This document shows, one piece after another, positions 25,601 through 42,545 of a stretch of DNA of 47,644 nucleotides. The position numbers were made by a program, and so were the translations under genes. A model generated the notes under the pieces. The model did not search any database, was not told where the DNA came from, and saw nothing but the letters and a program-made list of their open reading frames with translations. The stretch is from assembly GCA_002716485.1 (NCBI GenBank), contig PBBE01000047.1, forward strand, positions 1 to 47,644, in the 5' to 3' direction. Each line of letters starts with the position of its first letter. The stretch's first letter is position 1. The DNA is from Actinomycetota bacterium. GTDB taxonomy: Bacteria > Margulisbacteria > Marinamargulisbacteria > GCA-2716485.

Positions 25601-27987
25601 ATCACTTTGGTGACCCGACGATGATTGGTCGGTCTTTGTTGGCTTATTATGGGTTGGTAGGGATTTGGAAGATTCCTTTAAGAGAGACAGCCCCTGGTTT
25701 GGAGAAGGCATTTCGTAATTTGATGTTTGCAGGGCAACCTAGTTACGCTGTTATATGCTTGATATTTTCATTTTTGAATCAATTTTTTGTGGGGGTCAAG
25801 GTGCCCTTGTTATCGCAGCATTTAGCGCGTATTTTTGGGTATTTGAAGGGGATGGGGGTTTCTCTTGAATCGACTTCAGAGGTTCCTGATGAGCCAATGT
25901 CGTCTAGTATGAGCTTGATTAAAGTAGATGGGACCTTAGTGGATGATTTAAATATGTATCACAAATTTGTTCAGGTTTTAGCGGGTGGTGGTGGCCATTT
26001 TGATGAAATAAATCAAATTGATTTTAAACAATTAGATGATCGTTTTGACGATGGGTCACCGGTAGGCGTCTTTATGATGGTTTTTTGCTTTTTTGATAGT
26101 CAATATGAAAAGGGGCTTGAGATTGGGGATCAGCTTTGGCGTATGATTAAAGATCGTCATTTGGCGGTTATTTATCCGTTGTATATCTATTATTATAGTT
26201 TATTGATTTATCAAGGCTTTCAGGGTGCAAGCCTAAGACGGAAATGGATTTATCGACGACGTTTGTCTTATATTGTGAAACTTTATGATGGGTTTCAAGA
26301 TCGCTGTCCCGAAAATTTTCGGACGATTTATTTGTTTTTGGATGCCAAGTTATCGCATTTGAGATCTCCTTCATTTAACACAGTTCGTTATTTTAATGAG
26401 GCCGTGAGTTTGGCCATTCAAGATCAGATGCCCCATGTGGCAGGCTTGTGTCATCAAGCATTAGCGGATATTTATGAAGAAGAAGGGGTGTACCATTTGG
26501 CGTATACTCATTTAAATGAGGCTGTTCATTATTATTCGAATTGGGGCTTGAGTTTGGGGGTTCAAGAGATGAAGCTTAAGGTTGAATCATTGTATGAAAA
26601 ATGTAATTTATCTAAAGGGTTTATGCTTAATTTTTCTCAAGGGCTGGATTTTAAACGTTTGATTAATGCGAGTCAGTCTTTATCTCAAGAGACGAATTGT
26701 AAGGCCTTATTAGAGCAATTATTGAAGGTGGCCATGGAAAGTGCGGGAGCACAAAAGGCGGTTATTATTCTAAAGAAAGGAACTGATTTTTTTGTGGAAG
26801 CATCCTTTGATCCGAAGGACAATCAGATGAAGGTGTTTCAATCGGTTCCGATTCAGTCGGCGGATATGTTACCGAAGTCTTTGATTCAGTATGTTATTTT
26901 TACTAAAACCAAATTGCTGATTCATAACGCGGAGGGGCATAAGTTATTTCGGACGGATCCGTATGTGATTCAGAATGAACCGAAGTCGGTCTTATGTTTG
27001 CCTATTTTTAAACAGGTGGCATTAACAGGAGTGTTGTATCTTGAAAATAACTTGGTTTTTGATGGGTTTTCTGAAGATTCCTTACAGGTGTTAGAGGTGA
27101 TTGTCTCTCAAGCCGCTATTTCTATTGAAAATGCAGTTTTACATGAGCAGAACCAAGATTTAATTCATAACTTAGAGGACCGGGTTTCGTCTCAAATTAA
27201 GCAAACGCAGATAGCTGAACAGGAAAAAAACCAGAGTTTGAAAATGGTGAAAAAAGTATCAGAGCATTCGGCTTATGCGACTTTGACTAGAGGAATAGCT
27301 CATGAGATTCGCAATCCGATGGGGCTTATTTTATCGGGAATGGAATTAATTTTGGATAATATTCATGATAAAGAGTTGGTTCAAACGTATGCTCAATCTG
27401 TGAAGCAGAGCATGTTGCAGTTGTCGAGTATTACAACGAATATGCTTAACTATGGGACCCCGGTTTCGGACAAACGAGTCAATATGTCGATTAATGAGTT
27501 GATCAAAGATGCGTTAATGATGGCACGAACAGAGTGTAAGAAACGACGAATTGTGGTGAAAACGATTTTTAGAGAGGTTCCTGATGTGTATGTGGATACG
27601 AATAGTATTAGTCAGGCGTTTTTAAATATACTATTAAATGCGATTGAGGCCATTGATATGAATGGTGAAATTCAAATAGAAACCTTTGAGAGTCAGTGGG
27701 TTAATGCGTCTGGTCAACAAGTGGAAGGGGTGAAAGTGTTGGTTCAAGATTCTGGAAAAGGGATTCCTCAAGATATCTTAGATGAGATCTATGACCCGTT
27801 TTTTACTACAAAACATCAAAATGTAGGATTAGGACTTTCTCTGGTATTAAAAACAATAAGAGAGCATGAGGGGTTAATTGATGTGATTTCAAATGATGCA
27901 GGCTTGACGTCGTTTATTTTGCATTTACCTAGACAAGGTATTATAGAAGGGCGACGTGAGGAGGCCCTTTCTCTTTCAGTTAAGTAG
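22696..27987 (+). CDS. Multidomain sensor: degenerate Ser/Thr kinase, AAA ATPase, TPR-like region, GAF and histidine kinase (HstK-like)
   Basis: YCAPERTQRL and RSDFYALG kinase subdomains; P-loop GEKGAGKT; KTHGNPHY; GAF region (PKSVLCLPI, GVLYLENN); H-box IAHEIRNPM; N-box NAIEA; DSGKGI; FFTTK; GLGL. Confidence 0.92.
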   Translation: MIVEEKFLEGIHEKYELLSYQGRRVLERHFLSSDVALLQHFMKESGVLKALTERVEGVFLEHCPTGGFDKKMMFYLPEKGLSLGQLLSKGPMSMSDFYAFILPLLSRLKKVYGADFFHGNLNPNTIIVDSESFESYFFSVSFYAESEQAVPFYMALGKSILAYCAPERTQRLTLPYDHRSDFYALGCLIYECLTGTCLFDFEKPEEMVFAHLTQSPRELFGLKGKVPDYFSPMLLKIIEKLLHKDPHQRYQDIDSLIYDISQTQRLASTVSFPLDTQGKYRNVVLSDQYYGHQKEKDQMVSIYKNSLKNYPQLVLVEGEKGAGKTRFAHSILHGAFKPYPFIVLVSLQPKNQEVPYFGLTKLLEQLVFKLISQTNEQEIEEIRPQLHSISDENVALLMQLCSSYSALLEFFELDTKVTQSTQVANFGHAVVQFLSVVSLVKPLVFIFDGLEFADEATIRFISQSLVVLNDRPVTFVGTIGDEVLAEGNLVYSVLVQPSKTMYDYHLLKLSLLTVRDIKAFIKDTFHYRVERLDELAAIIIQKTHGNPHYIRQSVSFLLKEGYFKYLTESSIWKWSSEQVKSIKVADSAVNLLLGQYRSYSDDIRLLVQYAACFKDSFTMQQMASLLGFSNDVLIQYLLTLIDDNILVMVNQSIYLLSSRTLREQSYVLEQASFDFSNPKISAFIYDQVAAQERSEVHFRIGKLLLGQQDQLDEMFAEYKIVKHFNLSDRAYLDKSLARQLVNLNLLAGQKSKAAGHYQKALVYFDFALKFLDALHDEWDQPLCFSILLERVRCLYFSVGYEAALDAISQASEYSMSRLDKATVLMEQLFVEIEQNYFRKATETAYEMLRHCGVYLPKIKAVIILFLILEAQKIKRFIHLPIETDLVLDPQQSRRLELMFRGFELLNTSVHLVNNELFALSSLKLLSASYQMGGSANSASGLTMYSFWLTTQHKLDEAFTFSEKAIDISNHFGDPTMIGRSLLAYYGLVGIWKIPLRETAPGLEKAFRNLMFAGQPSYAVICLIFSFLNQFFVGVKVPLLSQHLARIFGYLKGMGVSLESTSEVPDEPMSSSMSLIKVDGTLVDDLNMYHKFVQVLAGGGGHFDEINQIDFKQLDDRFDDGSPVGVFMMVFCFFDSQYEKGLEIGDQLWRMIKDRHLAVIYPLYIYYYSLLIYQGFQGASLRRKWIYRRRLSYIVKLYDGFQDRCPENFRTIYLFLDAKLSHLRSPSFNTVRYFNEAVSLAIQDQMPHVAGLCHQALADIYEEEGVYHLAYTHLNEAVHYYSNWGLSLGVQEMKLKVESLYEKCNLSKGFMLNFSQGLDFKRLINASQSLSQETNCKALLEQLLKVAMESAGAQKAVIILKKGTDFFVEASFDPKDNQMKVFQSVPIQSADMLPKSLIQYVIFTKTKLLIHNAEGHKLFRTDPYVIQNEPKSVLCLPIFKQVALTGVLYLENNLVFDGFSEDSLQVLEVIVSQAAISIENAVLHEQNQDLIHNLEDRVSSQIKQTQIAEQEKNQSLKMVKKVSEHSAYATLTRGIAHEIRNPMGLILSGMELILDNIHDKELVQTYAQSVKQSMLQLSSITTNMLNYGTPVSDKRVNMSINELIKDALMMARTECKKRRIVVKTIFREVPDVYVDTNSISQAFLNILLNAIEAIDMNGEIQIETFESQWVNASGQQVEGVKVLVQDSGKGIPQDILDEIYDPFFTTKHQNVGLGLSLVLKTIREHEGLIDVISNDAGLTSFILHLPRQGIIEGRREEALSLSVK

Positions 27988-31269: not shown

Positions 31270-32463
31270 TTACTTTGCTAATAGTTCTATTACTTCTTTG
31301 TTGTTTGGATCGATTTCAATGGCACGTTGCCAACTATCAAAGGCCAAGTCTTCCAGTCCTAATTCATAATAAATGGAGCCAAGCCGGATATATAGTAGTG
31401 GTTGGGTAGGGTCAATTTGGATGGCTTGATTTAACTTGTTAAGTGCCATTTGGTAGCGTTTTTGTGAATAGTATTTGAATGAGTCAGAATAAAGGGCCAT
31501 GACTTTGCCGCTTTGCTTAGGTGCGACTTCAAATGGGAGGTCATGTTTTTTTCTGGGCCTCATTTCTTCTATTTTACTGGCCAATTGGGTTTTAAATCCA
31601 TCTACATCTTTTAATAAAGTGAGCCGTAATTTTTCAAGTTCATCCAATTCACCTTGGTATTGGTGCCATAAGTCTTCGATTTTATTGCCTAGTTTTTGGT
31701 ATTTTTTTTCATAGGCTTCAATTTCAGCACGTTGGTTTGAATAGGCGGATTTCATGCTGTTTTTTAGGGTGAATCCTACCGTTAGGTATCGGGAGGGGGC
31801 GTTATTATATTCCTCGTTGGCATCGCCTGAATGAGAAAGCTCGGTGAGGGCGATATTAATTTCAGTTTCTTTAGACGCATGAAACCGGTATCCAAAGTTG
31901 AAATCTTTGGTGTCATGTTCGAATATAATGGCGCCATTAAAAATATTGATTTCAAAGGCATAATAGAGACCGTTGCTGGTACTGATGCTTTTGATGGAGC
32001 TGAATTCTCGTTTGCCAAACCCGATATGTAGCCTTGAAAAGGGCGGTCCGAAATAAGTGGTTAAATAGGGGGAATAAAAATTTTCTTTTCCGGGACTCAC
32101 ATCGATCTTATTAGAACGGCTTGAGAGTTGTTTTTGGTTGCTAATATTTGCAATTCCGCCGGAGGCACCCACTAATTTTTTCATAAAAAAGTTCCAATGG
32201 ATATTAGCTGCAAATTGTTGGGGGCTTAAAATGGTGATGCCCGCTTTTATTTTTTCAGTGAGGCAGTAATTGAGCATCAGGTCAAATTCATGGGAGTAAT
32301 CTCGACTTAGTGCAAAAATCGTGCTTAGTTCAATGTCTCCACTTTGATGGGCTTTAGTCCCTGGAACATTGATTAAACTGGATGGGTAATGAAAGGCAGT
32401 GCTATAAACGGGGGTGTTTAAAAGACTGATGATAAAAATAAAGGTTCCGAGAATAATTCTCAT
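31270..32463 (-). CDS. Putative outer-membrane beta-barrel (YjbH-like) + coiled coil + C-terminal TPR protein, paralog 2
   Basis: Signal peptide, SLINVPGT motif, amphipathic strands (EHDTKDFNFGYRF, YLTVGFTL), heptad-rich segment and TPR pair with RLGSIYYELG...WQRAIEIDPNN. Confidence 0.7.
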   Translation of the reverse strand: MRIILGTFIFIISLLNTPVYSTAFHYPSSLINVPGTKAHQSGDIELSTIFALSRDYSHEFDLMLNYCLTEKIKAGITILSPQQFAANIHWNFFMKKLVGASGGIANISNQKQLSSRSNKIDVSPGKENFYSPYLTTYFGPPFSRLHIGFGKREFSSIKSISTSNGLYYAFEINIFNGAIIFEHDTKDFNFGYRFHASKETEINIALTELSHSGDANEEYNNAPSRYLTVGFTLKNSMKSAYSNQRAEIEAYEKKYQKLGNKIEDLWHQYQGELDELEKLRLTLLKDVDGFKTQLASKIEEMRPRKKHDLPFEVAPKQSGKVMALYSDSFKYYSQKRYQMALNKLNQAIQIDPTQPLLYIRLGSIYYELGLEDLAFDSWQRAIEIDPNNKEVIELLAK

Positions 32464-32465
32464 GA

Positions 32466-33758
32466 TTAGTTGCTAATGGCTTTATTTGGGCTAATAGGGG
32501 CTTGTTGGGGGATTGTTTCTGTTTTGTTTTGTGGGGTATCTTTTTTTTCTTTGGTTTTTTTTTGGGTTTTTTTTGATTCTCTGATTAGTTCTTTTTTGAT
32601 TTGTTTGAGATAGTTTACGATGTCTTTGTTTTTGGGATCAATTCGTAGGGCCATTTTCCATGCTGCTTTTGCCTTCTTATAATCTTTAAGTTTGAAGTAA
32701 ATGGAGCCAAGTCGGGTAAAGCCAACTGCAGAATTGGGGACGATTTTGACCACATTTAAGTATTCTTTTAAGGCATTTTGGTAGTCTTCATCATAGTAAA
32801 ACTCAAGGCCTCGCTGCATATGGACAAAGGCCCGTTTACTTGGATAACTTTCTTTGGGAAGGCCATCTTTTTCAAATGCGTCGGATAGGGTTTCTTCTAG
32901 GTCTTTTAGAAAGCCGGTTTGTTTGATAAGTTGATGGGTTTTTTCCACATCTTCTAGATTGTTTAGTCGAGTGTCGATATTATCGTAAGTTGAATTGAAT
33001 TCTTGACGTCCTACTAATAGGTCAGTGAGGCTATCTAAGACATTGCTGGCATAACTGACGCCGAATGAAAATAATCGTATTTCATGGCTAGGGTCTAATA
33101 TTTTGGGTCTTGCCGCCGTCCATGTTAAATAAATACGGGCTTTTTTTAGGTTGTATTTAAGACCAAGATTCGGAGAAAACCCGTCATATTCGGCAATAAT
33201 GGTTCCAAAGAGCATGCTTTTTTCAAAACCGCCTACAACACGTGTGATATTGGGTCTAATTCGATCAGAGGCGATTCCAATATGATAATTAGAGTTAAAT
33301 TTTAGTGATGAAATGGAGTAGATTGCAAATAAGTTCATAATGGGAATATTAGGAGCAGAGTCAATTTGCGGGATACTTCCCCAGCCTAGGTTTTTGAGAC
33401 CAATTCCAATATTATGTTGGATGGTTTTTTTTCTGTTTTGTCTTACAAATGGGGCGAAGTGAAAGCTATGAAGGGTATTCATGGTGTCTTGGACATTAAG
33501 GTTATATTCAAAGCGATCGGATAGTGCCCAGCGTAAATAAAATAATGTTCTAAAATAGACGGTGGCAGAGTCCGGGGTTTTGGCTCGGTAATCAAACATG
33601 GCACCATATTCAGTAAACCCCATTTTTTCCATTTTGGCAGAGGGGACTGTGATGAGGTCGTTTGATCCGGAAAAGCCAAATAGAAGCCCGTTTGAAAAGC
33701 CCCAAAATAGACTTAATAAAATGATAAGTTGTGGCTTAATGCGCATGTTGATCATCAT
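32466..33758 (-). CDS. Putative outer-membrane beta-barrel (YjbH-like) + coiled coil + C-terminal TPR protein, paralog 1
   Basis: Signal peptide, DLITVPSA motif, strands (EYDGFSPNLGLKY, FSFGVSY), coiled coil (IDTRLNNLE) and TPR pair with RLGSIYFKLK...WKMALRIDPKN. Confidence 0.7.
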   Translation of the reverse strand: MMINMRIKPQLIILLSLFWGFSNGLLFGFSGSNDLITVPSAKMEKMGFTEYGAMFDYRAKTPDSATVYFRTLFYLRWALSDRFEYNLNVQDTMNTLHSFHFAPFVRQNRKKTIQHNIGIGLKNLGWGSIPQIDSAPNIPIMNLFAIYSISSLKFNSNYHIGIASDRIRPNITRVVGGFEKSMLFGTIIAEYDGFSPNLGLKYNLKKARIYLTWTAARPKILDPSHEIRLFSFGVSYASNVLDSLTDLLVGRQEFNSTYDNIDTRLNNLEDVEKTHQLIKQTGFLKDLEETLSDAFEKDGLPKESYPSKRAFVHMQRGLEFYYDEDYQNALKEYLNVVKIVPNSAVGFTRLGSIYFKLKDYKKAKAAWKMALRIDPKNKDIVNYLKQIKKELIRESKKTQKKTKEKKDTPQNKTETIPQQAPISPNKAISN

Positions 33759-34257
33759 TTAAGGGGTCAAACTTATGGCATATATGAATAAGGCCTAACT
33801 CTTTTTGGTTAAGGGTACATTGGATTTGAGCGACTTGTAGTTGTTGGTCAGGAAAAAAGCATTGGCATTGTTCTTTTTTGGTTTCGCAGCGAGTAAGCTC
33901 GACGGGCTTATTGAGCTTAAGATAGAGTTGTTTAGTATCTTGGGACAGTTGAGATGAGAACAGGGATTCACTTGATGTTAAAATGTGTTCGGGTCGTTTA
34001 GTTACAATGCCATCACCTCCTAACATTCGGTCTGCTAATGCATAGATAATAGGGAGGTCAAAATTAAATAGAATGGGTTGGTTGTTTTCTTCAAATAATA
34101 GGGTGAAATTAAAGTCAGGTAATTGCTCTAGGAGGACATTAAAGGGCTGGTGCTTAAATTCAATATGAGTCATTTGAATCGAAATTTTGAGCTGTGATGC
34201 GATATGATCAGATAAGTTGAGTGCAAGTTGTTTATAAAATGGCTCAAATTGTGTCAT
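33736..34257 (-). CDS. fliM: FliM-like protein, middle (CheC-like) domain only
   Basis: FDLPIIYALADRMLGGDG...LTSSE matches the FliM GGxG region. It is 173 aa, with no LSQxEIDxLL N-terminus and no SpoA tail. Confidence 0.7.
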   Translation of the reverse strand: MTQFEPFYKQLALNLSDHIASQLKISIQMTHIEFKHQPFNVLLEQLPDFNFTLLFEENNQPILFNFDLPIIYALADRMLGGDGIVTKRPEHILTSSESLFSSQLSQDTKQLYLKLNKPVELTRCETKKEQCQCFFPDQQLQVAQIQCTLNQKELGLIHICHKFDPLNDDQHAH

Positions 34258-34274
34258 TGGACGTCCTTCCTATG

Positions 34275-34928
34275 TTATTGTACCGTTTCTTTAACGAGAA
34301 TGCTAATACGGCGGTTATTGGCTCTGTTTTGTTTGGAGGTATTCGGTGCAATTGGTTTGGTATCTGCATACCCAGTTACACGAAGACGGTGTGAGTTAAT
34401 TTTAGATTGAATTAGTCGTCTGGCTACGGCAGATGCTCTGGCAGCAGATAGTTCCCAATTAGATGGATAGATATCGGATTGGATGGGAATATTATCGGTA
34501 TGACCTTCAATAATAATTTGGCCGTTACTTTGTTGAAGAAGATGGCTGATTTTAATTAATATTTTGGAGGTGTTTGTTTTTATGCTGGCTTTACCCGAGT
34601 CAAATAATATTTCTGAACCTAGATTAATACGGATATTTTGGGGGGTTTGGATGATTTCAATATCATTTTCAAGTTGGTTTTCTATAATATAGGCATTTAG
34701 TGTATCGCTAATGTCTTGGAGTTGTTTTTGCTGATTTAAAAGGTCATTGAATGGGGAGTCGTTATTGTTGCTGAATGTATTGCTTAATGACGCTTGTGAT
34801 TCAATATATTTTCCGATATCGATTTCAGAAATAGAGTATAAATAAATGAAAAAGACGAGTAATAGAGTTAATAAGTCTGCCCAGCAGACAATAAAATGAT
34901 TTTTAGGTTGCTCGTTTAATTCATTCAT
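34275..34928 (-). CDS. motB: Stator B subunit (MotB/PomB-like, OmpA-type peptidoglycan-binding domain)
   Basis: WADLLTLLLVFF TM with the conserved Asp; EGHTDNIP, SNWELSAARA, GYADTKP and NRRISI motifs. Confidence 0.93.
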   Translation of the reverse strand: MNELNEQPKNHFIVCWADLLTLLLVFFIYLYSISEIDIGKYIESQASLSNTFSNNNDSPFNDLLNQQKQLQDISDTLNAYIIENQLENDIEIIQTPQNIRINLGSEILFDSGKASIKTNTSKILIKISHLLQQSNGQIIIEGHTDNIPIQSDIYPSNWELSAARASAVARRLIQSKINSHRLRVTGYADTKPIAPNTSKQNRANNRRISILVKETVQ

Positions 34929-35695
34929 TTGTTTGGTTTGAGCTTTTTACGCTCTTTTTCGGGTAGGCACATGGACATTTTTTCATAGATCATATAATTG
35001 GTCTCTTTTTGGGCAATGCAGATGATGCCTTCTAAGAGCATTTTCTTTTGGATTAGTTCTTCATTACTTGCAATTCGTAGACGACCTGATAGGGGTTGAA
35101 AAATGAGGTTCGCCAATAGGATGCCATAGAATGTTGTAATCAATGCGATGGCCATGTTAGGACCAATCGTCTCAGGGCTTTCTAGTTCTGACAGTAAGTT
35201 AATCAGTCCAATTAATGTGCCAATAAATCCGAATCCTGGAGCATATTGGGCCATTTGCTCAAAAAAATGGATACCTTGGTTATGTCGAGACTGGATAAAG
35301 TCAATATTTTTTTCTAAGATGGGAACTAATTCTTTGACGGGGATATTATCAATGAGTAGTTGAAGACCATGTTTTAAATAATGGTCTTGGGTTTTTTTGA
35401 CGGTTTTTTCGAGAGATAAGCGGCCATTTTTTTTGTAGTTAGTGGCGATTTCGCTCATGTGTTTGATGTCTTGTAAGTAGTCTCTGCCTCGTGGCGAGAA
35501 AATAACTTTTAACCGGCCACCAATTCGAAATAGCTGGGTTAATGGGAAATGGACGAGGGTGGCACCGAAAGTGCCGCCCATGACAATTAGAAATGAGGTT
35601 GGATGTACAAATAAATGGATTCCTTTTTCGATGCCAATGGCTTGAATAATGAGCCCGCAACCTAATAATACGCCTAAAAATGCGGTGATGTCCAT
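34925..35695 (-). CDS. motA: Stator A subunit (MotA/PomA-like)
   Basis: SFLIVMGGTFGA, GRLSLE, APGFGFIGTLIGLI and IGPNMAIALITTFYG motifs; AGGGAG RBS. Confidence 0.95.
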   Translation of the reverse strand: MDITAFLGVLLGCGLIIQAIGIEKGIHLFVHPTSFLIVMGGTFGATLVHFPLTQLFRIGGRLKVIFSPRGRDYLQDIKHMSEIATNYKKNGRLSLEKTVKKTQDHYLKHGLQLLIDNIPVKELVPILEKNIDFIQSRHNQGIHFFEQMAQYAPGFGFIGTLIGLINLLSELESPETIGPNMAIALITTFYGILLANLIFQPLSGRLRIASNEELIQKKMLLEGIICIAQKETNYMIYEKMSMCLPEKERKKLKPNK

Positions 35696-35699
35696 GTGC

Positions 35700-36698
35700 T
35701 TACTCCCTTTTTTCGATTAGTTCTGATAATGGGTTGACTTTGTTGTTTCGTTCGAGTTCACGTGCTGTTTGAATAATATTTTTTTGGGCGATTTTGGCAT
35801 CATTTTCATTGAGCTCTTTGGGCAAGTTACTGATTTCTTCTTCTAACATGAACTTAAGTCGTTCGGAGAGGTTTTCTAGAATTCTATTTTTCACGTTGAT
35901 ATTAGAAATACTAAGGGCTGCTGCTAAGGTGCTTAATGGATCAATAGCGTATAGTAGACTTTGAAGATCTTTATCAGATAGATTGATTAAGTCTCCAAAT
36001 TCAAGCATATAGGATTTGATTTTTTGACTGGCTTCTTGGTCGCTTTGTTCAAAGTGGGTCATAATTGCACTCATATGTTCAGGGTTCATCACTTCGAGAC
36101 TTAAGGATAATTTGAGGTATGGATCTGTGCTTTCTTTGCTCACTTTTTCTTTTAATAATTGGTCTTTGAGGTGATGATGGATCTTCCAAGCCAAGCTAAT
36201 ATTGGGGATGTCTATTTTGAGTAGTTTTGAGGTGATGAGAATACTGATGTCTTTTTCAAATTGGGATAATAGTTGGGCCATTTTGTCTTCCGGTAAAAAA
36301 GAGCAAATAAGGGCGCTTAGTTGCGGTGGTTCATTTAATAAAAATTGGGTGAGCTTTTCATTATCAACTTGGTTAAGAAAGTGGAATAATTGGTCACTTT
36401 TTTCAAATAATGACGCATGGGAAATATCTGGAAATGATTGTTCAAAGAGATGGCTGGGGAGTAGTTCACCACCAAAGTGGGATCGCTTTCCGTTTAATAG
36501 GGTATGAAATTCTTCGATAATTGGTGAGGAGATATCTTCTTTAATATGTCCTAACTTTGACATGCTTTGTAGGAGTTGGGTGCTTTGTGTTTTTCCCAGT
36601 TTATTGAGTACTTCATGGGTTACCCCTGGGGACTCGACCTCTAAAGATAAGAGCAAGATGGCTGCTTTTTGGATAGGGGTATAGGTATCATCATTCAT
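35700..36698 (-). CDS. fliG: Rotor protein FliG (divergent)
   Basis: QKAAILLLSL, the GG linker, EPPQ (EHPQ-like), MLEFGDL (MFxFEDL-like) and torque helix NLSERLKFMLEEE. Start set at 36698 after an AGGAG RBS. Confidence 0.9.
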   Translation of the reverse strand: MNDDTYTPIQKAAILLLSLEVESPGVTHEVLNKLGKTQSTQLLQSMSKLGHIKEDISSPIIEEFHTLLNGKRSHFGGELLPSHLFEQSFPDISHASLFEKSDQLFHFLNQVDNEKLTQFLLNEPPQLSALICSFLPEDKMAQLLSQFEKDISILITSKLLKIDIPNISLAWKIHHHLKDQLLKEKVSKESTDPYLKLSLSLEVMNPEHMSAIMTHFEQSDQEASQKIKSYMLEFGDLINLSDKDLQSLLYAIDPLSTLAAALSISNINVKNRILENLSERLKFMLEEEISNLPKELNENDAKIAQKNIIQTARELERNNKVNPLSELIEKRE

Positions 36699-37788
36699 TA
36701 TTGATGTCTCCTTCTTGTTCTTGGTCTTTAATCCAGCCCATAATGGTGTGGGCAACTGCTTCTGGTTTTTTTAATGAGATATTGGCCAGTTCTTTTCGTT
36801 TCTGTTTAAAAAGTCGTAGTTGTCGTTTTGCTTCTAGAGCTGCTTTTTTTTGAGCGTCTTCTTGTTTTTTTAAAATGGCTGCTTTTTTTTCTTTGATTTG
36901 ACGTCGAAGAAATAGTCCTAGTTTTGTTAGAAAGTAGAGAAGTAAGAGTAATATGCTAGTAATAAATAATTTGAAGTCTTGAGCGGCAATAAAAGATTTA
37001 GTGGTATCAAAAAAGGGTTTATGTCGGGCAAGAAAGCGTTGGATAATAAATAAGGGGCCTTGAAATGGGGTGTATTGGATGTCGAGTTGGTCTTGTCGTG
37101 TAGGGTTAAATCCTGAGATTGATTGGATAAGTGATTTTAAAGTGTCGGTGTCAATGGGGATTAGTTGTGTGGAAGCGCTATCAAGTAAAATTTGGATTTG
37201 CATTTGTTGGATTATGTTTTTGGGGCTGGAAATAGTTTCATTGGTTTCATTGTAGTAAATGGATTCAATCTTTTCGGAGATACTGGTATTTACCTTTTGT
37301 ATTTTTTCTTTGGGGATGCTTGGTTTAATACTTTCGACGACGACGCCAGGAAAGCCTGGTAGTGCGGATTCATTACTTTGACGTTGGGTAATGAGCCCAG
37401 GAAGTTTAAGTCCGTCTTTATAGAGCTGTTGTAACATTTGAGCAGATTGTCTAAGCGGGACCTGGGGAATGATATCACCATTTAGTTTTTGTTGGCGTTG
37501 GGTAATGATTCGATTTGGGGTTAGTTCTTTAGATTTTTGGATACGATGTTCGGGGATATCTAAGTTAACGGCGATGATAAAGGCAGTTTCAGGATAGAAT
37601 TTTTTGAGTAGTAGATGGATGTCTCCTTTAATTTTAAGGCTTTGTCGTTCTGGAAATGATAGGGATTGATGGGGGCGACGCTCAGATAGCCAGTTAGTGA
37701 TTTTATTGGGGGTTCTGAATAGAAAAAAGGTCCCCAAGAGGATGGCGATAATCAGGATGGGTAAATAAGGTGATTTATGTGTCGTCAT
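36691..37788 (-). CDS. fliF: FliF-like MS-ring protein, RBM3/C-terminal half only
   Basis: TM1, then RBM3-like segments (LLLKKFYPETAFIIAVNLDI; IIQQMQIQILLD; LIQSISGFNPTRQDQLDIQYTPF), TM2 and a FliG-binding tail KPEAVAHTIMGWI. Start set at MTTHK (37788). Confidence 0.75.
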   Translation of the reverse strand: MTTHKSPYLPILIIAILLGTFFLFRTPNKITNWLSERRPHQSLSFPERQSLKIKGDIHLLLKKFYPETAFIIAVNLDIPEHRIQKSKELTPNRIITQRQQKLNGDIIPQVPLRQSAQMLQQLYKDGLKLPGLITQRQSNESALPGFPGVVVESIKPSIPKEKIQKVNTSISEKIESIYYNETNETISSPKNIIQQMQIQILLDSASTQLIPIDTDTLKSLIQSISGFNPTRQDQLDIQYTPFQGPLFIIQRFLARHKPFFDTTKSFIAAQDFKLFITSILLLLLYFLTKLGLFLRRQIKEKKAAILKKQEDAQKKAALEAKRQLRLFKQKRKELANISLKKPEAVAHTIMGWIKDQEQEGDINNE

Positions 37789-39073
37789 TAGTTTTAAAAA
37801 TTTGGATTCGGTTATTACCAGAATCAACGACATATAAGGTGCGGGCACTACTATCATAGTGTAATTGACGAGGGAATTTAAACTCACCTGTATCGCTGCC
37901 TTCTTGGCCCCAGTTGGCAACGTGAAGGCCGGTTCTTATATCAAATATTTGGATACGATGATTAAACGTGTCTGAAACGTATAGATGGTGGTTGGCGCTA
38001 TCTATGGCCATGCCTTCTGGGCTTTTGATATTGCCTGTACTGGTACCATATTTAATTGTATTAAATTGGGTGAGCTCATTATTGCTTAATCGTTGTACAA
38101 TACTTAATTCTTTGTTGACGATGTAGACATCGTTATCATAATGGGCCAGATCATAGGCAAATAAGGTGGCGTTACTGTCTTGGAATGAGCTTGTGGGGCC
38201 AGTGTGGATCCGGTGGTCATCGAGGCTGCTATAGACCACCGATGTGAGATTGCTTGGGTTGGCTCTGACGGCAATGGGGTTATCTAGATTGTTGATCGGG
38301 ATAAAGGGATCTCCACTTTCTCCCCAATTATCAGGGTCAAATTTGATGATACGGTTATTACCAGAATCAGCGACCCAGATTCTGCTCCCGTCATAGGTGA
38401 GTCCTCGGGGATATCTAAATTGAAACTCGCCAGACCCTGCAGTGCCATAGGTGGCCATTAAGCTGCCAGAGGGGGCATATTTTTGGATTCGAGAGTTTAG
38501 GGTGTCTGATACATAAATATTTTTGTTGCTATCTAGGGTAATGCCCGTGGGATGGATGAGTGCGTCATTGGGGGTAATATTGAGTTGATGGGACATAAAT
38601 CCGGTATATTTGAGTGCTTTGGGTGAGGATGATGAAAATGTGTAATTTCTAGTTGAAATGGCTTGTAAAATAAAATTATAAGTAGTAAAGCCTTCACTTA
38701 ACTTTTGCTCAAGGATATATTGGTATATGATGGCATTGTTAATGGAAATATTTTCAGTGATAATTAGTAGGTCTTGGTTGTTTTTATTAGGTTCAACAGG
38801 GAATTGTTGGATGTATTGGTAGGGCTGGGTGCTTCCTTCGGTTTTGAAAGCCAATTTGTAATGGTCTACATTTTCGGGGTTATTGATAATCCATTTGATG
38901 GTAATAAATTGGGTGGCTTTATCGAGTTCGATTGATGAGATCATTGGAATGCTTTGAAAATCGTCAAATTTAACAGTGGCGGTTAAATTATCGATGGGGC
39001 TGGATGTGCAGCCGATAATCAGGCCTAAGCAAAGAAGGATTGTACTGACTTCGATATGCAGCCTTTTGATCAT
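37775..39073 (-). CDS. Lipoprotein with an FN3-like domain and an NHL-repeat beta-propeller
   Basis: Lipobox LIIG-C; NHL repeats (PTGITLDSNKNIYVSDTLNSRIQK, PRGL..WVADSGNNRI, PEGMAID..YVSDTFNHRIQ, YVVDSGNNRIQ). Confidence 0.88.
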   Translation of the reverse strand: MIKRLHIEVSTILLCLGLIIGCTSSPIDNLTATVKFDDFQSIPMISSIELDKATQFITIKWIINNPENVDHYKLAFKTEGSTQPYQYIQQFPVEPNKNNQDLLIITENISINNAIIYQYILEQKLSEGFTTYNFILQAISTRNYTFSSSSPKALKYTGFMSHQLNITPNDALIHPTGITLDSNKNIYVSDTLNSRIQKYAPSGSLMATYGTAGSGEFQFRYPRGLTYDGSRIWVADSGNNRIIKFDPDNWGESGDPFIPINNLDNPIAVRANPSNLTSVVYSSLDDHRIHTGPTSSFQDSNATLFAYDLAHYDNDVYIVNKELSIVQRLSNNELTQFNTIKYGTSTGNIKSPEGMAIDSANHHLYVSDTFNHRIQIFDIRTGLHVANWGQEGSDTGEFKFPRQLHYDSSARTLYVVDSGNNRIQIFKTNDDT

Positions 39074-40917
39074 CGACTTAGCCTTTCTAGTTCATTTTTT
39101 AAGGCAATATTCTCTGATTTAAGGGCATTAATTTCGCTTTGTTGGGCTTTAATAGATTCAATGATAAGACCGATTAATGGCGTCATGTTCAATGTTTTAT
39201 ATCCGCTGGGATCGGTGCCTACTAGGTTTGGGTAAATATCTTCGACATTTTGGGCGATTAAACCGATTTGGCTGCCCTCTGGAAAGGACCGTTCGGGAAA
39301 CTCGTCTTGACGCCATTCATAAGTGACCCCATTGAGTTCAGAAAGGGAAGCTATGGGAGTTGAAATGGCCTTGATCTCTTTTTTTAAGCGCCGATCAGAT
39401 GGTGTGCTGAGTGCCATTCCGGGGGTTCCTGCCATAAAGGTGGTGCCAGTGACATGTAAGTCGCCGGTGATCTTAATGCCGGCACCGTAGTCATTGATTT
39501 TTCCTAATTCTAAATTGGTTCTGGCTGCTTCTGCAGTGGTGCCGCCGGTACCTCCCTTGCTTATGGCAATGATGGGGAGACGGTTGGCAGGGACCTCTTG
39601 GGCGTAGGTGGTGGTGATATTGGTATTGCTTAAATTGGTCATGGTGGCTGTTCCTGTAATATCACCAGTAAGTGTAATAACGGGATCATTGACATCAAAG
39701 CTTAGTGTTTTATTGGGATGGCTGCCAGCGCCATCTATAGAAATGCCATTCTCTGTATTGTCATTGACCATTTTGATTACTTCGTCTCTTACTTCATTTC
39801 CATTTAATCCGCCACCAGCCCCGGCGGGAACGTTAGATAGCCAGTTGTAGTGGATTCGACCGGCGCCTGTTGGCTCATCATCAAGGTCAACTTTTTTATA
39901 AAACGTATTTTCAGTATAGCTTGTAATGGCTTTTTCAGTAGGAATTGCGCTATCACTATTTCCTGTAAAGGTGGCATCACTACTGAACTCGTTGACTGGA
40001 ACCCCTGAGTTAAGGAGAAGTGTGCCTTTGACTTCAAGGGTTTCACTGGGATTGGTGGTATTAATACCGACATTGCCTTTATTATAGAAAATTTCATTGG
40101 CTTCACTGCCGTCTTCCCAGCGCCCTGCATTTTCGTCCACATAGGTTTTGATGGCTTTTTCAGTGGGAATACTGTTGTCACTATTGCCAGCAAGGGAGGT
40201 ATCGGTACTAAAGTTGTTAATCGCGGTTCCAGAATTTAAAAGAAGGGACCCGTTCTTGATATGAAGTTTCTCGGTTGGGTTGGTGATGCCAACGCCTACA
40301 TTGCCAGAGAGATAATAAATTTCATCGCTGTCATCACGCTCTTTCCATTTTCCACCGTTTTCTTTGATGTATTCGACAATGGCCAATTGGGATGCAATTT
40401 TATTATCACTTGGATTGGTAAAGGTGATGTCGGTACTTAGTGCTTGGATTTCGTTACCATTGTTAATTGTAATGCTTTTAACCTTAATGGATTGCTCGTT
40501 ACCAAATAATGATGGGACTAGGTCAATTGCATAGGGGGCGGCTGTGAGTGAGTGGGTTAGGGGGATGGTTACTTGGTCAATGGTATAGGACTCCGCCCCT
40601 TCGATGCTAAATTGCAAGTTTGGGGTGGGGATATCAAGTAGGTTTGGGGTTAAAGGGGTGCTATGTCCCAAGGTAAGATCAGCATGGCCATCCACAAAAG
40701 AGACCCCAATTAATGTTTCACTCCAAGCGGTTGCGGTGGTATCTGAAAATAGTGCGATTTTCACTCGCTTGTAGCCGTTAATAGGGCCGTTTTGGTCAGA
40801 AAGGTTTAATGTGATGGGGATGACTTTGGATGCCGCTATGATAGGGCTGCTATTTTTAATTAATAGGCCGGAGATAAGGGCGCTCCAAATAAGTATTTGA
40901 AAGAAATAGCGTTTCAT
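39070..40917 (-). CDS. Secreted trimeric fibre/adhesin with a C-terminal peptidase S74 intramolecular chaperone
   Basis: Signal peptide; GNVGVGITNP and GNVGINTTNP repeats; tail-fibre motifs (ITLTGDITG, KGGTGGTTAEAARTNL); SDRRLKKEI...GVTYEW...IGLIAQNVE and a terminal coiled coil. Confidence 0.88.
   Translation of the reverse strand: MKRYFFQILIWSALISGLLIKNSSPIIAASKVIPITLNLSDQNGPINGYKRVKIALFSDTTATAWSETLIGVSFVDGHADLTLGHSTPLTPNLLDIPTPNLQFSIEGAESYTIDQVTIPLTHSLTAAPYAIDLVPSLFGNEQSIKVKSITINNGNEIQALSTDITFTNPSDNKIASQLAIVEYIKENGGKWKERDDSDEIYYLSGNVGVGITNPTEKLHIKNGSLLLNSGTAINNFSTDTSLAGNSDNSIPTEKAIKTYVDENAGRWEDGSEANEIFYNKGNVGINTTNPSETLEVKGTLLLNSGVPVNEFSSDATFTGNSDSAIPTEKAITSYTENTFYKKVDLDDEPTGAGRIHYNWLSNVPAGAGGGLNGNEVRDEVIKMVNDNTENGISIDGAGSHPNKTLSFDVNDPVITLTGDITGTATMTNLSNTNITTTYAQEVPANRLPIIAISKGGTGGTTAEAARTNLELGKINDYGAGIKITGDLHVTGTTFMAGTPGMALSTPSDRRLKKEIKAISTPIASLSELNGVTYEWRQDEFPERSFPEGSQIGLIAQNVEDIYPNLVGTDPSGYKTLNMTPLIGLIIESIKAQQSEINALKSENIALKNELERLSR
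39907..40443 (-). repeat. Internal protein repeat of about 76 aa (about 2.3 copies) in the fibre gene
   Basis: LSTDITFTNPSDNKIASQLAIVEYI / FSTDTSLAGNSDNSIPTEKAIKTYV / FSSDATFTGNSDSAIPTEKAITSYT; the first two are followed by W..EI.Y..GNVG....P...L...LLLNSG. Confidence 0.8.
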
Positions 40918-41010: not shown

Positions 41011-41937
41011 CTAGGTCTTTTTTTTAAGTGACCAATGTAATGAAAACAGGTGGGACTGGGGGACTTGAGGATGGCTGTTGGGTAAGAATGCGTATTGGAG
41101 TTGGAGTTGATTTAGATTAAGACTTAGCCCGGTACTTGCTTGTATGAGGTCTAGGTTATGGTGTTGGGAATATCCAAAATATATCGATAGGAGCGAGACT
41201 TGTGTGGGATGTAAAATGATGCCTAGTGCGCTGATCATGGCGTTTCGGGTGGGGTGGCTTTTGGTTTGGCTTCTGATGCTAAAGTGTCTGGATTGGAATT
41301 GATGGCTGATGATGATTTGGGTGGGGTAGTGGGCGCTGATGCGTTGGTTTTGGTAGTTTTGATGGAAAGGGTGCTTTATCAGGTGATTAATAATCAGGGA
41401 ATAGTGATGGGCGGATTGGGTCCAATATGCGCCGATGCCAGCATTGATATTATTGAATATATTCTGGTCGATTTCAGTGCGAATCCAAGATGTTTTGAGA
41501 CCGAGGTAAGCATGGGGAGATAGGCGGGTAGCGATGATATGGTTGAGTTCTAGGTGTTGATAATGAAAGCTGTGGTGAATGATTGGGTAGTCATTGATCA
41601 GGGTGCTGTGGTGTAACTGCGAGACACTGGTTTTCATTAGGCCGATTCCCATGGGGATGTTTTTGAATGGGAACGTGCTCGCGAATTGTTGGTACTGGAT
41701 TTCGTTTAGGATACGGGTGTTAAATAAGGAAAAGGATGGCGATTTGATACGCCCAATTGTGGCTGGGTTTCCGAAGACGCTGCTGGCATGATCTGAAAAG
41801 CCTTGGATGTTGCCGCTGCCGATCATTTTGGCACTATTGCCCAAGTGACTGGCTAAAAATGATTGGCTTTGCTTGCCCCAACTGGGGCTGCTTAGGAGTA
41901 GGAGTATTATAGCGAAGGTAGGGCGTTTATTGATCAT
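41011..41937 (-). CDS. PorV/PorQ (FadL-fold)-like outer-membrane beta-barrel
   Basis: Signal peptide; N-terminal plug motif GNSAKMIGSGN...DHASSVFGNPATI (similar to GARaxgMG...NPAgL); C-terminal LQYAF...HLFSLHW. Confidence 0.65.
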   Translation of the reverse strand: MINKRPTFAIILLLLSSPSWGKQSQSFLASHLGNSAKMIGSGNIQGFSDHASSVFGNPATIGRIKSPSFSLFNTRILNEIQYQQFASTFPFKNIPMGIGLMKTSVSQLHHSTLINDYPIIHHSFHYQHLELNHIIATRLSPHAYLGLKTSWIRTEIDQNIFNNINAGIGAYWTQSAHHYSLIINHLIKHPFHQNYQNQRISAHYPTQIIISHQFQSRHFSIRSQTKSHPTRNAMISALGIILHPTQVSLLSIYFGYSQHHNLDLIQASTGLSLNLNQLQLQYAFLPNSHPQVPQSHLFSLHWSLKKKT

Positions 41938-42545
41938 GGGAGGCTTACCATTTTACCTTTACCAAGGATGGTTTTTTTAGTTGAAATTAGATAAAAATAA
42001 ATGGCGCTACTTAACGCGCTATTGGGGAGTGATTTTTTGGAAAAAGAAAAGGTATTGATCCCAGATTTTCCGCCGCTTTCTCCTGATGAGAACTGGGCCT
42101 GGTAGACCCGCTGGCCACTCATATCATAAATGTCGATGTTAATATCTGCGTTTTGGTTTAAGTGATAGTAGAGGGTGGTGCCAGAATTGATTCGGAATGG
42201 GTTGGGGTAATTTAAGGGGGCTTTTTCAAGTTGGATGGGGGCAATATCTTCATGAATCACTTCATCACTGCTGCTGTGTTGGTTGGCAGGGGGCTTGGCT
42301 TGTGAGTGTGGCATGTTAAAGGTATTGGGATGACTGGTGATGGTTCCGTAGATGGGTGTATCCATGAGGGTGTGTTGGCTTTGGTGTTGGCGTTTAAAAA
42401 GGGGTTCTTTTGCGGTGGTGTTGGTGATGGGGCTACATAAGCAAAGGATTAGTATCCCTTGGAAGAGTCGGGTTGATCGTTTAATTAGGAAGAGGTTTTG
42501 TTTCATTCTAGTTTTATTATTGACGATTAGGATAGGGAAATACAA
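41934..42545 (-). CDS. Small exported protein consisting mainly of a T9SS type-A-CTD/FlgD-Ig-like domain
   Basis: NYPNPF...TTLYYHL...INIDIYDMSGQRV...LSSAIYFYLI...GKGKMV. The true start may be 42506 (MKQNL). ATGA overlap with the next gene. Confidence 0.75.
   Translation of the reverse strand: MYFPILIVNNKTRMKQNLFLIKRSTRLFQGILILCLCSPITNTTAKEPLFKRQHQSQHTLMDTPIYGTITSHPNTFNMPHSQAKPPANQHSSSDEVIHEDIAPIQLEKAPLNYPNPFRINSGTTLYYHLNQNADINIDIYDMSGQRVYQAQFSSGESGGKSGINTFSFSKKSLPNSALSSAIYFYLISTKKTILGKGKMVSLP

Follow-up and report, generated by a model that had tools for sequence, protein, structure and literature searches.

A MAT-like S74 fibre of a marine Marinamargulisbacteria-like bacterium is encoded in a recurrent gene triad with a PorV/PorQ-like barrel and a CTD protein

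Cell-encoded fibres with an S74 domain are already known as the superfamily of mosaic adhesive trimers (MATs), described in Bdellovibrio bacteriovorus (e.g. Bd3182; Caulton et al. 2024, PMC10769870). According to the available part of that paper, all 21 Bdellovibrio MATs possess a beta-rich domain of ~130 aa directly past the signal peptide, 13 of them carry a terminal S74 that contains SDxxxK, the Ser of Bd3182 is a site of self-cleavage, and the MATs are located on the cell surface. The same part of the paper reports no solved structural relative of the MAT N-domain and leaves the surface partner of this conserved domain open. The attachment of proteins to the surface by outer-membrane barrels has been described for the T9SS of Bacteroidota, in which PorZ-PorQ and PorU-PorV are the surface attachment pairs, known PorV/PorQ/PorP-type barrels serve as shuttles or anchors, and type-B CTD adhesins have SprF/PorP-like carriers, each gene for a large adhesin being accompanied by that for its cognate barrel (PMC12365241, in the part available).

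In this study, we analyzed a fibre gene (its product is called P0001 here) and its surroundings in the window, which is the whole stretch of DNA of 47,644 nt (47 kb). The phylum to which this DNA belongs is a sibling to Cyanobacteria; its placement was obtained with EF-Ts, RF1 having given only matches of 49-58% spread over many phyla. No RNA data set was listed as carrying this DNA. Given that such fibres have been described before as MATs, P0001 taken alone would be no more than a new member from a little-studied phylum. The new point is a recurrent gene context, namely a triad of genes for a small CTD protein, a barrel and an N-domain protein. The features of the locus are as follows.

41934..42545, minus strand: small secreted CTD protein, first of the triad; listed as 203 aa, with Met14 (nt 42506) as the probable start
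41011..41937, minus strand: PorV/PorQ-like outer-membrane beta-barrel, second of the triad; 308 aa, with signal peptide
39070..40917, minus strand: fibre gene P0001, third of the triad; ATG start, 615 aa
40828..40917, minus strand: signal-peptide-like N-terminus, residues 1-~30 (hydropathy, modelled helix, 19/19 relatives)
40558..40827, minus strand: N-domain beta-sandwich, residues ~31-120, proposed cell-proximal anchor (model, family profile)
40183..40410, minus strand: shaft repeat 1, residues 170-245 (self-alignment score 206)
39958..40182, minus strand: shaft repeat 2, residues 246-320 (self-alignment to repeat 1)
39892..39957, minus strand: partial shaft repeat 3, residues 321-~342 (read off the translation)
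39400..39891, minus strand: distal region, residues ~343-506, exposed C-terminal tip after the predicted cleavage
39073..39399, minus strand: Peptidase_S74 intramolecular chaperone, residues 507-615 (Pfam, motif, fold)
37775..39073, minus strand: NHL-repeat beta-propeller lipoprotein, 432 aa (lipobox LIIGC; Pfam NHL, E 3.4e-28)
31270..37788, minus strand: FliF-like, FliG, MotA, MotB, short FliM-like and two signal-peptide TPR proteins (Pfam, spacing)

A preliminary description of this DNA had proposed a protein encoded by the cell, exported and similar to a phage tail fibre, with an N-terminal beta domain, a repetitive shaft and an intact S74 chaperone, all of which was borne out. First, the N-terminus of P0001 consists of MKR, a 17-residue hydrophobic stretch and then ...IAAS/K, has a peak 9-residue mean hydropathy of 2.27, forms a helix in AF2 models (residues 2-17 or 2-23) and begins in the same way as all 19 aligned N-domain proteins; from these features we infer a probable Sec signal peptide. 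Second, the N-domain of ~90 aa was modelled as seven strands across residues ~31-117 (pLDDT 80-88 within the whole protein and 84-93 for the domain by itself). Third, the shaft, for which repeats of about 76 aa had been claimed, comprises two 76-aa repeats, which give a BLOSUM62 local score of 206 and no large gaps when aligned to each other, and an incomplete third one. The orthologues P0128 (399 aa) and P0169 (510 aa), for which a cluster look-up returned no names, have P0001-like ends and no shaft repeats; thus, shaft length is modular. The shaft module reaches 23 copies in giant proteins. The distal region showed 41-47% identity in P0128 and in the orthologue of the closest relative (G005), and its model confidence was low as a monomer.

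Finally, PF13884 (cut-off 22 bits) matched P0001 over residues 507-566 with an E of 1.1e-13 and 51.7 bits, or 56.1 bits when the genome was scanned, and the first position of the profile falls on Ser507. The SDRRLK motif runs from Ser507 to Lys512, the predicted cleavage/nucleophile residue and the predicted base, respectively. SDxxxK was found in 59 of the 72 aligned homologues, the remaining 13 being shaft-only proteins without an S74 domain. The domain model (pLDDT 89-97) contains a terminal coiled-coil helix (residues 579-614), and its best solved fold match was the MyRF ICA domain (7dc3, E 5e-5, TM 0.69 by target), followed by the K1F endosialidase chaperone (3gw6, 3gud) and the T5 fibre (4uw8). 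The top PDB sequence match was phage S16 gp37 (6f45, E 1e-9), whose SDRR aligned with Ser507. Like P0001, the phage S74 chaperones of K1F, T5 pb1 (4uw8) and S16 gp37 are C-terminal and have the Ser-Lys dyad and a terminal helix. Unlike these phage fibres, P0001 lacks a virion context and has a signal peptide and a cell-type N-domain where they have a tail/baseplate adaptor. MyRF, a membrane-bound transcription factor of eukaryotes whose role is unrelated to that of P0001, shares with it a VGI.T..P...L loop motif just upstream of the S74 part; the GNVGI.TTNP...L.V motif of shaft repeat 2 also aligned weakly to MyRF.

The architecture of P0001 is that of a MAT fibre in the sense of a likeness of plan, the N-domains being compared by description with the available part of PMC10769870. 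Both are cell-encoded and follow the same domain order, i.e. signal peptide, beta-rich N-domain, modular shaft and S74 with SDxxxK. In both families, the N-domain is common to many paralogues, S74 is present in part of them, and other paralogues carry other tips (Table S1 of that paper). Both N-domains are also without a clear solved relative, the best hit here having a Z of 6.7. P0001 differs in being shorter (615 aa vs ~1,000 aa for MATs), in belonging to a marine Marinamargulisbacteria-like host, a group absent among the rows of Table S3 of PMC10769870 that were examined, and in having the genes for a PorV/PorQ-like barrel and for a CTD protein ahead of its own; the surface partner of MATs is left open in the available text. 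The preliminary description had also read the fibre as a hint of a predatory or epibiotic lifestyle. We did not retain this suggestion: the S74 and shaft modules matched 43,035 cluster representatives, including proteins of Nostoc, Moorea, Desulfobacterales and Bacteroidales, and the MAT table, as far as available, includes members without a predator note (PMC10769870).

The N-domain family is phylum-wide. Its profile was found in 80 of the 101 sampled genomes of the phylum, usually in 1-11 copies. A count of paralogues, suggested earlier as a check, gave four N-domain ORFs in the genome of the fibre (G000, 56% complete), of which one has S74; paralogues share the N-domain but differ in the tip. 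With regard to structure, the best match of the N-domain in a wide structure search (Z 6.7, C2-/Ig-like sandwiches) was within the stated background of the tool, and no match at E<=1e-3 was found among the viral structures of BFVD. Its look-alikes in the Atlas, which labels this region PF30789, were the N-termini of S74- and fibrinogen-C-tipped clusters, with TM values of only 0.51-0.59. A word search for the N-domain in longer proteins returned none at E<=0.01.

The two genes upstream of the fibre gene code for T9SS-type parts. The 203-aa protein carries a T9SS type-A C-terminal sorting domain, matched by both PF18962 (E 3.3e-6, 27.7 bits, cut-off 27) and TIGR04183 (37.1 bits, cut-off 23), and its gene overlaps the barrel gene by 4 nt. 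The barrel matched NF033709 (PorV/PorQ) with an E of 3e-8, but its 33.6 bits are far under the cut-off of 90 for this family. Its Atlas model (pTM 0.79) gave TM values of 0.81-0.88 to PorV/PorQ, UPF0164 and DUF5723 clusters, and the motif GSSA..G.GN.EGF...F.NPA is conserved across an alignment of 20 barrel sequences.

Gene order among relatives revealed that the gene link that recurs is that of the fibre with the upstream barrel and the small CTD protein. When 40 relatives were searched, 19 of 54 N-domain matches (matches in 13 genomes) lay within 1 kb downstream of a PorV-like match on the same strand, compared with 0.05 expected by chance. In a profile search, 24 of the 82 N-domain matches listed were likewise within 1 kb downstream of a PorV-like match on the same strand, and 8 more were downstream of one within 20 kb, again on the same strand. 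Fifty of these 82 listed matches had no PorV-like match on their strand in the 20 kb upstream; thus, the barrel is not an obligate neighbour of the N-domain. In all 18 fetched loci, the barrel ORF was followed by an ORF with signal peptide and N-domain, and sometimes two N-domain giant genes in tandem follow one barrel gene. A small gene was present upstream of the PorV-like barrel gene in 19 of 20 relatives' loci, the C-terminal motif of the encoded proteins being judged CTD-like by eye. The genome of the fibre itself contains three triads, on contigs C47, C53 and C25.

This arrangement resembles the T9SS pairs PorQ-PorZ and PorV-PorU, in which, as here, a FadL/PorV-type barrel gene stands beside a gene for a T9SS-type CTD protein (PMC12365241, in the part available). 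In contrast with the T9SS of Bacteroidota, the locus belongs to another phylum, the fibre has no CTD and its conserved module is N-terminal. P0001 does not look like T9SS cargo: it showed no C-terminal sorting domain, PF13884 being the only match at E<=0.01. SprA and GldM, in contrast with the T9SS, were not found either: the SprA/GldM-type profiles TIGR04189, PF14349 and TIGR03517 gave no hit over cut-off in any of five genomes, and none in the control genomes either. The type-A CTD and the PorV-like barrel are thus T9SS-type parts outside Bacteroidota, with SprA/GldM undetected in the five genomes and in the controls alike. In the literature searched, no paper was found that unites S74 fibre, barrel and CTD protein, and among the papers listed none mentioned Margulisbacteria.

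Based on these observations, we consider it fairly probable that P0001 is a MAT-type cell-surface fibre and the cargo of a three-gene cassette, with its N-domain docked on the barrel/CTD pair. P0001 would be exported by Sec, and three chains would fold into the fibre, guided by the C-terminal S74 intramolecular chaperone. The chaperone would then cut itself off at Ser507 by means of the Ser507/Lys512 dyad, and this cleavage would expose the distal tip (residues ~343-506) as the putative binding end, the N-terminal beta-sandwich remaining next to the cell. The small CTD protein and the PorV/PorQ-like barrel might form a surface-exposed pair, as do PorZ-PorQ and PorU-PorV in Bacteroidota, onto which the N-domain of the fibre would dock. 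Many N-domain genes lie directly downstream of those for a barrel and a CTD protein, which makes the triad a concrete candidate for the way in which MAT-like fibres may be retained on the outer membrane or may cross it.

The second of these two roles corresponds to an alternative that we regard as possible but considerably less probable, namely that N-domain proteins use the barrel and the CTD protein as a device for export or assembly (an usher or translocon) rather than as a lasting anchor, the fibre then being released or held otherwise. The recurrent gene linkage is equally consistent with both readings, and a device of this kind might fit the occurrence of one barrel gene before two tandem N-domain giant genes, as well as the finding of no SprA-type translocon over cut-off in the five genomes, in which regard the controls were silent too. 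However, a FadL/PorV-type barrel of ~300 aa is small for the passage of a folded trimer, and known PorV/PorQ/PorP-type barrels are shuttles or anchors (PMC12365241, in the part available).

The genes downstream of the fibre gene raise another alternative. The preliminary description had suggested that the fibre was displayed or moved by the adjacent motor, i.e. that it belongs to the rotary machine of FliF-like, FliG, MotA, MotB, FliM-like, NHL and two TPR proteins. SprB adhesins, which are driven by the GldLM motor, offer an analogue. Consistent with this, eleven genes are closely packed on the minus strand between 42545 and 31270, with 4-nt overlaps (CTD/barrel, MotA/MotB and fibre/NHL, where the NHL gene start overlaps the fibre stop) and no convincing terminator between them. 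The FliF-like protein of the cluster has YscJ_FliF_C only, and the canonical basal-body genes, including that for a 601-aa FliF, are elsewhere in the genome; thus, the genes described here make up a second rotor/stator set of reduced content. A matching fibre-motor arrangement was found in only one genome, that of the closest relative (G005, of another family of the order), where it is split over two contigs with ends that fit each other: one bears the barrel, the fibre and the start of a lipoprotein after the fibre gene, in the same position as in the genome studied here, and the other NHL, FliF-like and further genes through to TPR. In addition, T9SS PorQ/PorV barrels have been proposed to ride a motor-driven ring (PMC12365241, in the part available).

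However, the motor cluster is kept across the order without the fibre. Among ten motor loci of relatives, TGT directly adjoins the FliF-like gene in five and the NHL gene is present in only one, and the S74 matches of those relatives are on contigs other than that of the motor cluster. Triads C53 and C25 have no motor genes adjoining upstream, and both reach the contig end downstream. Thus, the link of the fibre to the motor appeared weak, and we regard it as rather unlikely that the fibre is part of the rotary machine; membership of the FliF-like, FliG, MotAB, FliM-like and TPR genes in the fibre system is uncertain. The two TPR proteins were also considered as PorV-like barrels and rejected (hhalign against the barrel alignment, E 0.06 and 0.098).

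A broader variant, in which the triad, the NHL protein, the reduced FliF-like/FliG/MotAB/FliM-like set and the two exported TPR proteins are all parts of a single machine spanning the envelope, seems improbable to us. If true, outer-membrane barrels with adhesive fibres on them would be driven or positioned by a rotor/stator of flagellar origin, which would amount to a functional analogue of T9SS/gliding built of flagellar parts.

The reading of P0001 as a leftover or domesticated tail fibre of a phage or tailocin, without a cellular role of its own, is highly improbable: although P0001 matched 16 PHROG tail families and is 30-38% identical to the S74 ends of myovirus long tail fibres, these phage matches span only 20-24% of it (residues ~470-615), none of 286 phage records reached a coverage of at least 80%, an IMG/VR pattern scan found no relative, and the gene, with its signal peptide and cell-specific N-domain family, is surrounded by housekeeping genes of the window. 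The earlier remark that no phage genes lie nearby also held: of 13 other window proteins, none matched a PHROG of known phage function, 10 had no match and 3 matched families of unknown function only, via TPR or zinc-ribbon stretches, so that, going by its neighbours, P0001 is not in a tail module.

Two minor observations concern variation of the fibre gene. The G005 orthologue has an in-frame TAA directly past the signal peptide, which we counted against the cassette reading. With regard to the variability of this slot across strains, which had been suggested as a check, a fourth metagenome run, of low depth, showed 10 single-base differences over the 8 bins out of 30 that it covered; in contigs of three other marine metagenome runs (two studies), the stretch was matched at an identity of at least 99% with zero indels.

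The fibre gene encodes a protein (P0001) of five parts and lies downstream of two further genes, as follows.

41934-42545, minus strand: small secreted protein bearing a C-terminal domain (CTD) of T9SS type A (TIGR04183, 37.1 bits against a cut-off of 23)
41011-41937, minus strand: PorV/PorQ-like barrel, 308 aa, upstream of the fibre gene
39070-40917, minus strand: fibre ORF, P0001, 615 aa
P0001, N-terminus: signal-peptide-like stretch, MKR, 17 hydrophobic residues, then ...IAAS before K (hydropathy; helix in models)
P0001, residues ~31-117: N-domain, predicted seven-strand beta-sandwich (pLDDT 80-93)
P0001, residues 170-245 and 246-320, then a partial third: shaft repeats (self-alignment, local score 206)
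P0001, residues ~343-506: distal region
P0001, residues 507-615: Peptidase_S74 intramolecular chaperone (Pfam, 51.7 bits against a cut-off of 22)

The preliminary description had reported a signal peptide, an N-terminal beta domain, shaft repeats of about 76 aa and an SDRRLK motif retaining the Ser/Lys dyad, and this observation of a fibre was confirmed as a whole. First, hydropathy, a modelled helix and a start of the same type in all 19 aligned relatives suggested a putative signal peptide. Second, the repeats aligned with each other behind a poorly modelled linker that separates them from the predicted N-domain. Finally, the S74 domain looks intact from its sequence: the Pfam match starts exactly at Ser507 of SDRRLK, Lys512 lies five residues further, and SDxxxK was present in 59 of 72 aligned homologues, the other 13 being shaft-only proteins devoid of an S74 domain. 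The model of this part (pLDDT 89-97) resembled the ICA domain of MyRF (7dc3; E 5e-5, TM 0.69 by target), the K1F chaperone (3gw6, 3gud) and the T5 fibre (4uw8), and the best hit in a PDB sequence search was phage S16 gp37 (6f45, E 1e-9).

P0001 matched 20 PHROG families (16 tail, one head and packaging, three of unknown function). Of the 13 other window proteins, ten had no PHROG match and three matched only families of unknown function, through TPR or zinc-ribbon stretches; none matched a family of known phage function, which agreed with the earlier claim that no phage genes lie nearby. The remainder of the window is occupied by housekeeping genes, among them rpsB, tsf, tgt, prfA and thioredoxin. 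Matches among 50,697 phage records were restricted to P0001 residues ~470-615, covering 20-24% of the query at 30-38% identity, none of the 286 matching records covered at least 80% of the protein, and an IMG/VR pattern scan found no relative. On these searches, the P0001 gene is not a phage gene.

The modules of P0001 are very common (43,035 cluster representatives at E<=1e-3, 46 at E<=1e-30, some being giants in which as many as 23 stretches matched), and orthologues with the full plan are few. Two orthologues, P0128 (399 aa) and P0169 (510 aa), have the same signal peptide, N-domain, distal region and S74 domain and lack the 76-aa repeats; therefore, shaft length is modular. The copy in the closest relative (G005) shared 47% identity with P0001 over residues 352-612 and 40% over 23-138. 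In its gene, on contig G005:C148, an in-frame TAA directly follows the signal-peptide region (L116 ~1270-1290, before the N-domain), which may mean that the gene is a pseudogene, starts later or was misassembled.

The same plan of signal peptide, N-domain, shaft and S74 is found in the mosaic adhesive trimer (MAT) fibres of Bdellovibrio, which are located at the cell surface: a beta-rich domain of ~130 aa directly follows the signal peptide in 21 of 21 MATs, 13 of 21 end in S74 with SDxxxK, and Bd3182 cleaves itself at its Ser (PMC10769870). For the MAT N-domain, neither a solved structural relative nor a surface partner is known (PMC10769870); that of P0001 likewise had no clear structural relative among 48,161 chains (best Z 6.7). 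By its architecture, P0001 is a candidate member of the MAT superfamily, and the fibre is a fresh member of an already known kind. Among the rows listed in Table S3 of PMC10769870 are Oligoflexia, the PVC group, Alphaproteobacteria, Deltaproteobacteria, the FCB group and Omnitrophica, some examples carrying no predator note; Margulisbacteria are absent from those rows. The earlier interpretation was partly supported. A cell-encoded S74 fibre stood, whereas the hint at a predatory or epibiotic lifestyle was not borne out: the only finding that points towards predation or epibiosis is an adhesive fibre family, and families of this type also occur in non-predators.

A profile built from an alignment of 19 N-domains was used to scan 101 sampled genomes of the phylum, and the N-domain occurred in 80 of them (56 of the 67 high-quality ones), usually in 1-11 copies and in ORFs of <200 to >5,000 aa. 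A check for S74 paralogues sharing this domain found four N-domain ORFs in the present genome (contigs C47, C53, C25 and C21), S74 being confined to the fibre on C47. A BFVD search gave no N-domain match at E<=0.001, and look-alikes in the Atlas, at TM of only 0.51-0.59, were N-termini of clusters ending in S74 or fibrinogen-C. Relatives' genomes measuring only 1-2.5 Mb also encode N-domain giants of 2,000-5,500 aa, often as tandem pairs behind one PorV-like barrel gene.

The barrel matched the PorV/PorQ family at E 3e-8 with a score below the cut-off, and its Atlas model matched PorV/PorQ, UPF0164 and DUF5723 clusters at TM 0.81-0.88. In 40 relatives, 19 of 54 N-domain matches (13 genomes) lay within 1 kb downstream of a barrel match on the same strand; the chance expectation from genome sizes and hit numbers was 0.05, a Poisson figure that overstates significance because kin are not independent. 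With the 19-sequence profile, 24 of the 82 matches listed were adjacent to a barrel, a further 8, from tandem giant genes, were on the same strand and at most 20 kb downstream, and the other 50 lacked such a neighbour. All 18 fetched loci showed a barrel ORF of 303-317 aa, a short gap and an ORF with signal peptide and N-domain. The small CTD-protein gene precedes the barrel gene, overlapping it by 4 nt, and in 19 of 20 loci of relatives an equivalent (173-212 aa) likewise stood before the barrel gene, the products ending, as read by eye, in ...G(V/I)YF(Y/F)......GKGK..V.P. TIGR04183 independently matched four of these, three above cut-off, one of them only after its score was added to those of neighbouring hits, and that of G001:C5 below. 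Three complete triads (CTD protein, barrel, N-domain protein) occur in the present genome. SprA and GldM were above cut-off in none of five genomes, in searches without a positive control. As far as these searches show, the recurrent cassette of CTD-protein, PorV-like barrel and N-domain genes is an undescribed variant and provides a candidate outer-membrane partner for MAT-type fibres. On contig C8, a 1,132-aa protein bearing a T9SS-type CTD is followed by one of 772 aa (L142 4108-6426) that combines a PorV-like barrel (weak match) with Glucodextran_B and an SLH domain.

By analogy with the established behavior of S74 domains (PMC10769870), P0001 would be exported through Sec, fold as a trimer on its S74 domain as template, and cleave itself at Ser507, exposing the distal region as tip. 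In the T9SS, PorV and PorQ hold PorU and PorZ on the outer membrane and cognate PorP-like carriers hold type-B CTD proteins (PMC12365241); on this precedent, the small CTD protein and its barrel could form a surface platform, on which gene linkage suggests that the fibre N-domain may dock. That the barrel exports N-domain proteins rather than anchoring them is a live alternative to this docking.

The preliminary description also had the fibre displayed or moved by the adjacent motor, and a functional link is possible. The fibre stop codon and the start of an NHL-propeller lipoprotein gene overlap, and further on, in tight packing, come FliF-like (YscJ_FliF_C part only), FliG, MotA, MotB, a FliM-like protein of 173 aa and two exported TPR proteins. 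In the one related genome in favor, G005, the triad with the fibre and the following lipoprotein start share one short contig that might connect to the motor contig, and G005 alone among 10 relatives' loci has the NHL gene beside the FliF-like gene. However, conservation of the motor cluster across the order does not extend to the fibre, and 5 of the 10 loci have TGT directly beside the FliF-like gene. The cluster is a second, reduced set; canonical basal-body genes (FliM/N, FliO, FliP, FliQ, FliR, FlhB, FlhA, FliK, FlgF/G, FlgA, FlgH, FlgI, FliE and a FliF of 601 aa) lie on other contigs. C58 (L118) and C5 (L119) carry a full flagellar export gate and basal body, L- and P-ring genes included; fliG does not follow the true FliF gene, and Flagellin_N (PF00669) was found in none of five genomes, of which three are 92-95% complete. 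MotA/MotB occur as three sets in this small genome: that of the window (31270-37788, minus strand) with two TPR proteins; one on C35 (L163) with, in this order, a TPR protein, a 487-aa protein whose FliG_C (residues 373-480) is the sole Pfam match, MotA and MotB; and one on C56 (L164) with two MotA genes and MotB. A FliG_C protein of ~480-500 aa was matched in most of 40 relatives.

The assembly (1.4 Mb, 59 contigs) is 56% complete, its nearest named EF-Ts proteins belong to Candidatus Marinamargulisbacteria (54-57% identity), and contigs from two studies (three marine metagenome runs) carry the stretch with at least 99% identity and no indels. Oceanic members are predicted to be aerobic heterotrophs (PMC6349859); the group is known from sequence only, with draft genomes of 0.5-2.0 Mb, and one member lives as a symbiont inside the cells of a placozoan (PMC6784892). 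The main texts of both papers contain no flagell* or adhes* wording.

Elsewhere in the window, a POTRA protein (583 aa) adjoins a 1,677-aa protein with no Pfam family (610-7348, minus strand), the two looking like a candidate TamA/TamB-type pair. At 18326-27987 (plus strand), a family-less 1,457-aa protein is followed by a 1,763-aa fusion of Ser/Thr kinase, AAA_16, GAF and histidine-kinase domains. GC skew of the plus strand is strongly positive throughout (0.14-0.44 per 2 kb), yet most genes are on the minus strand.
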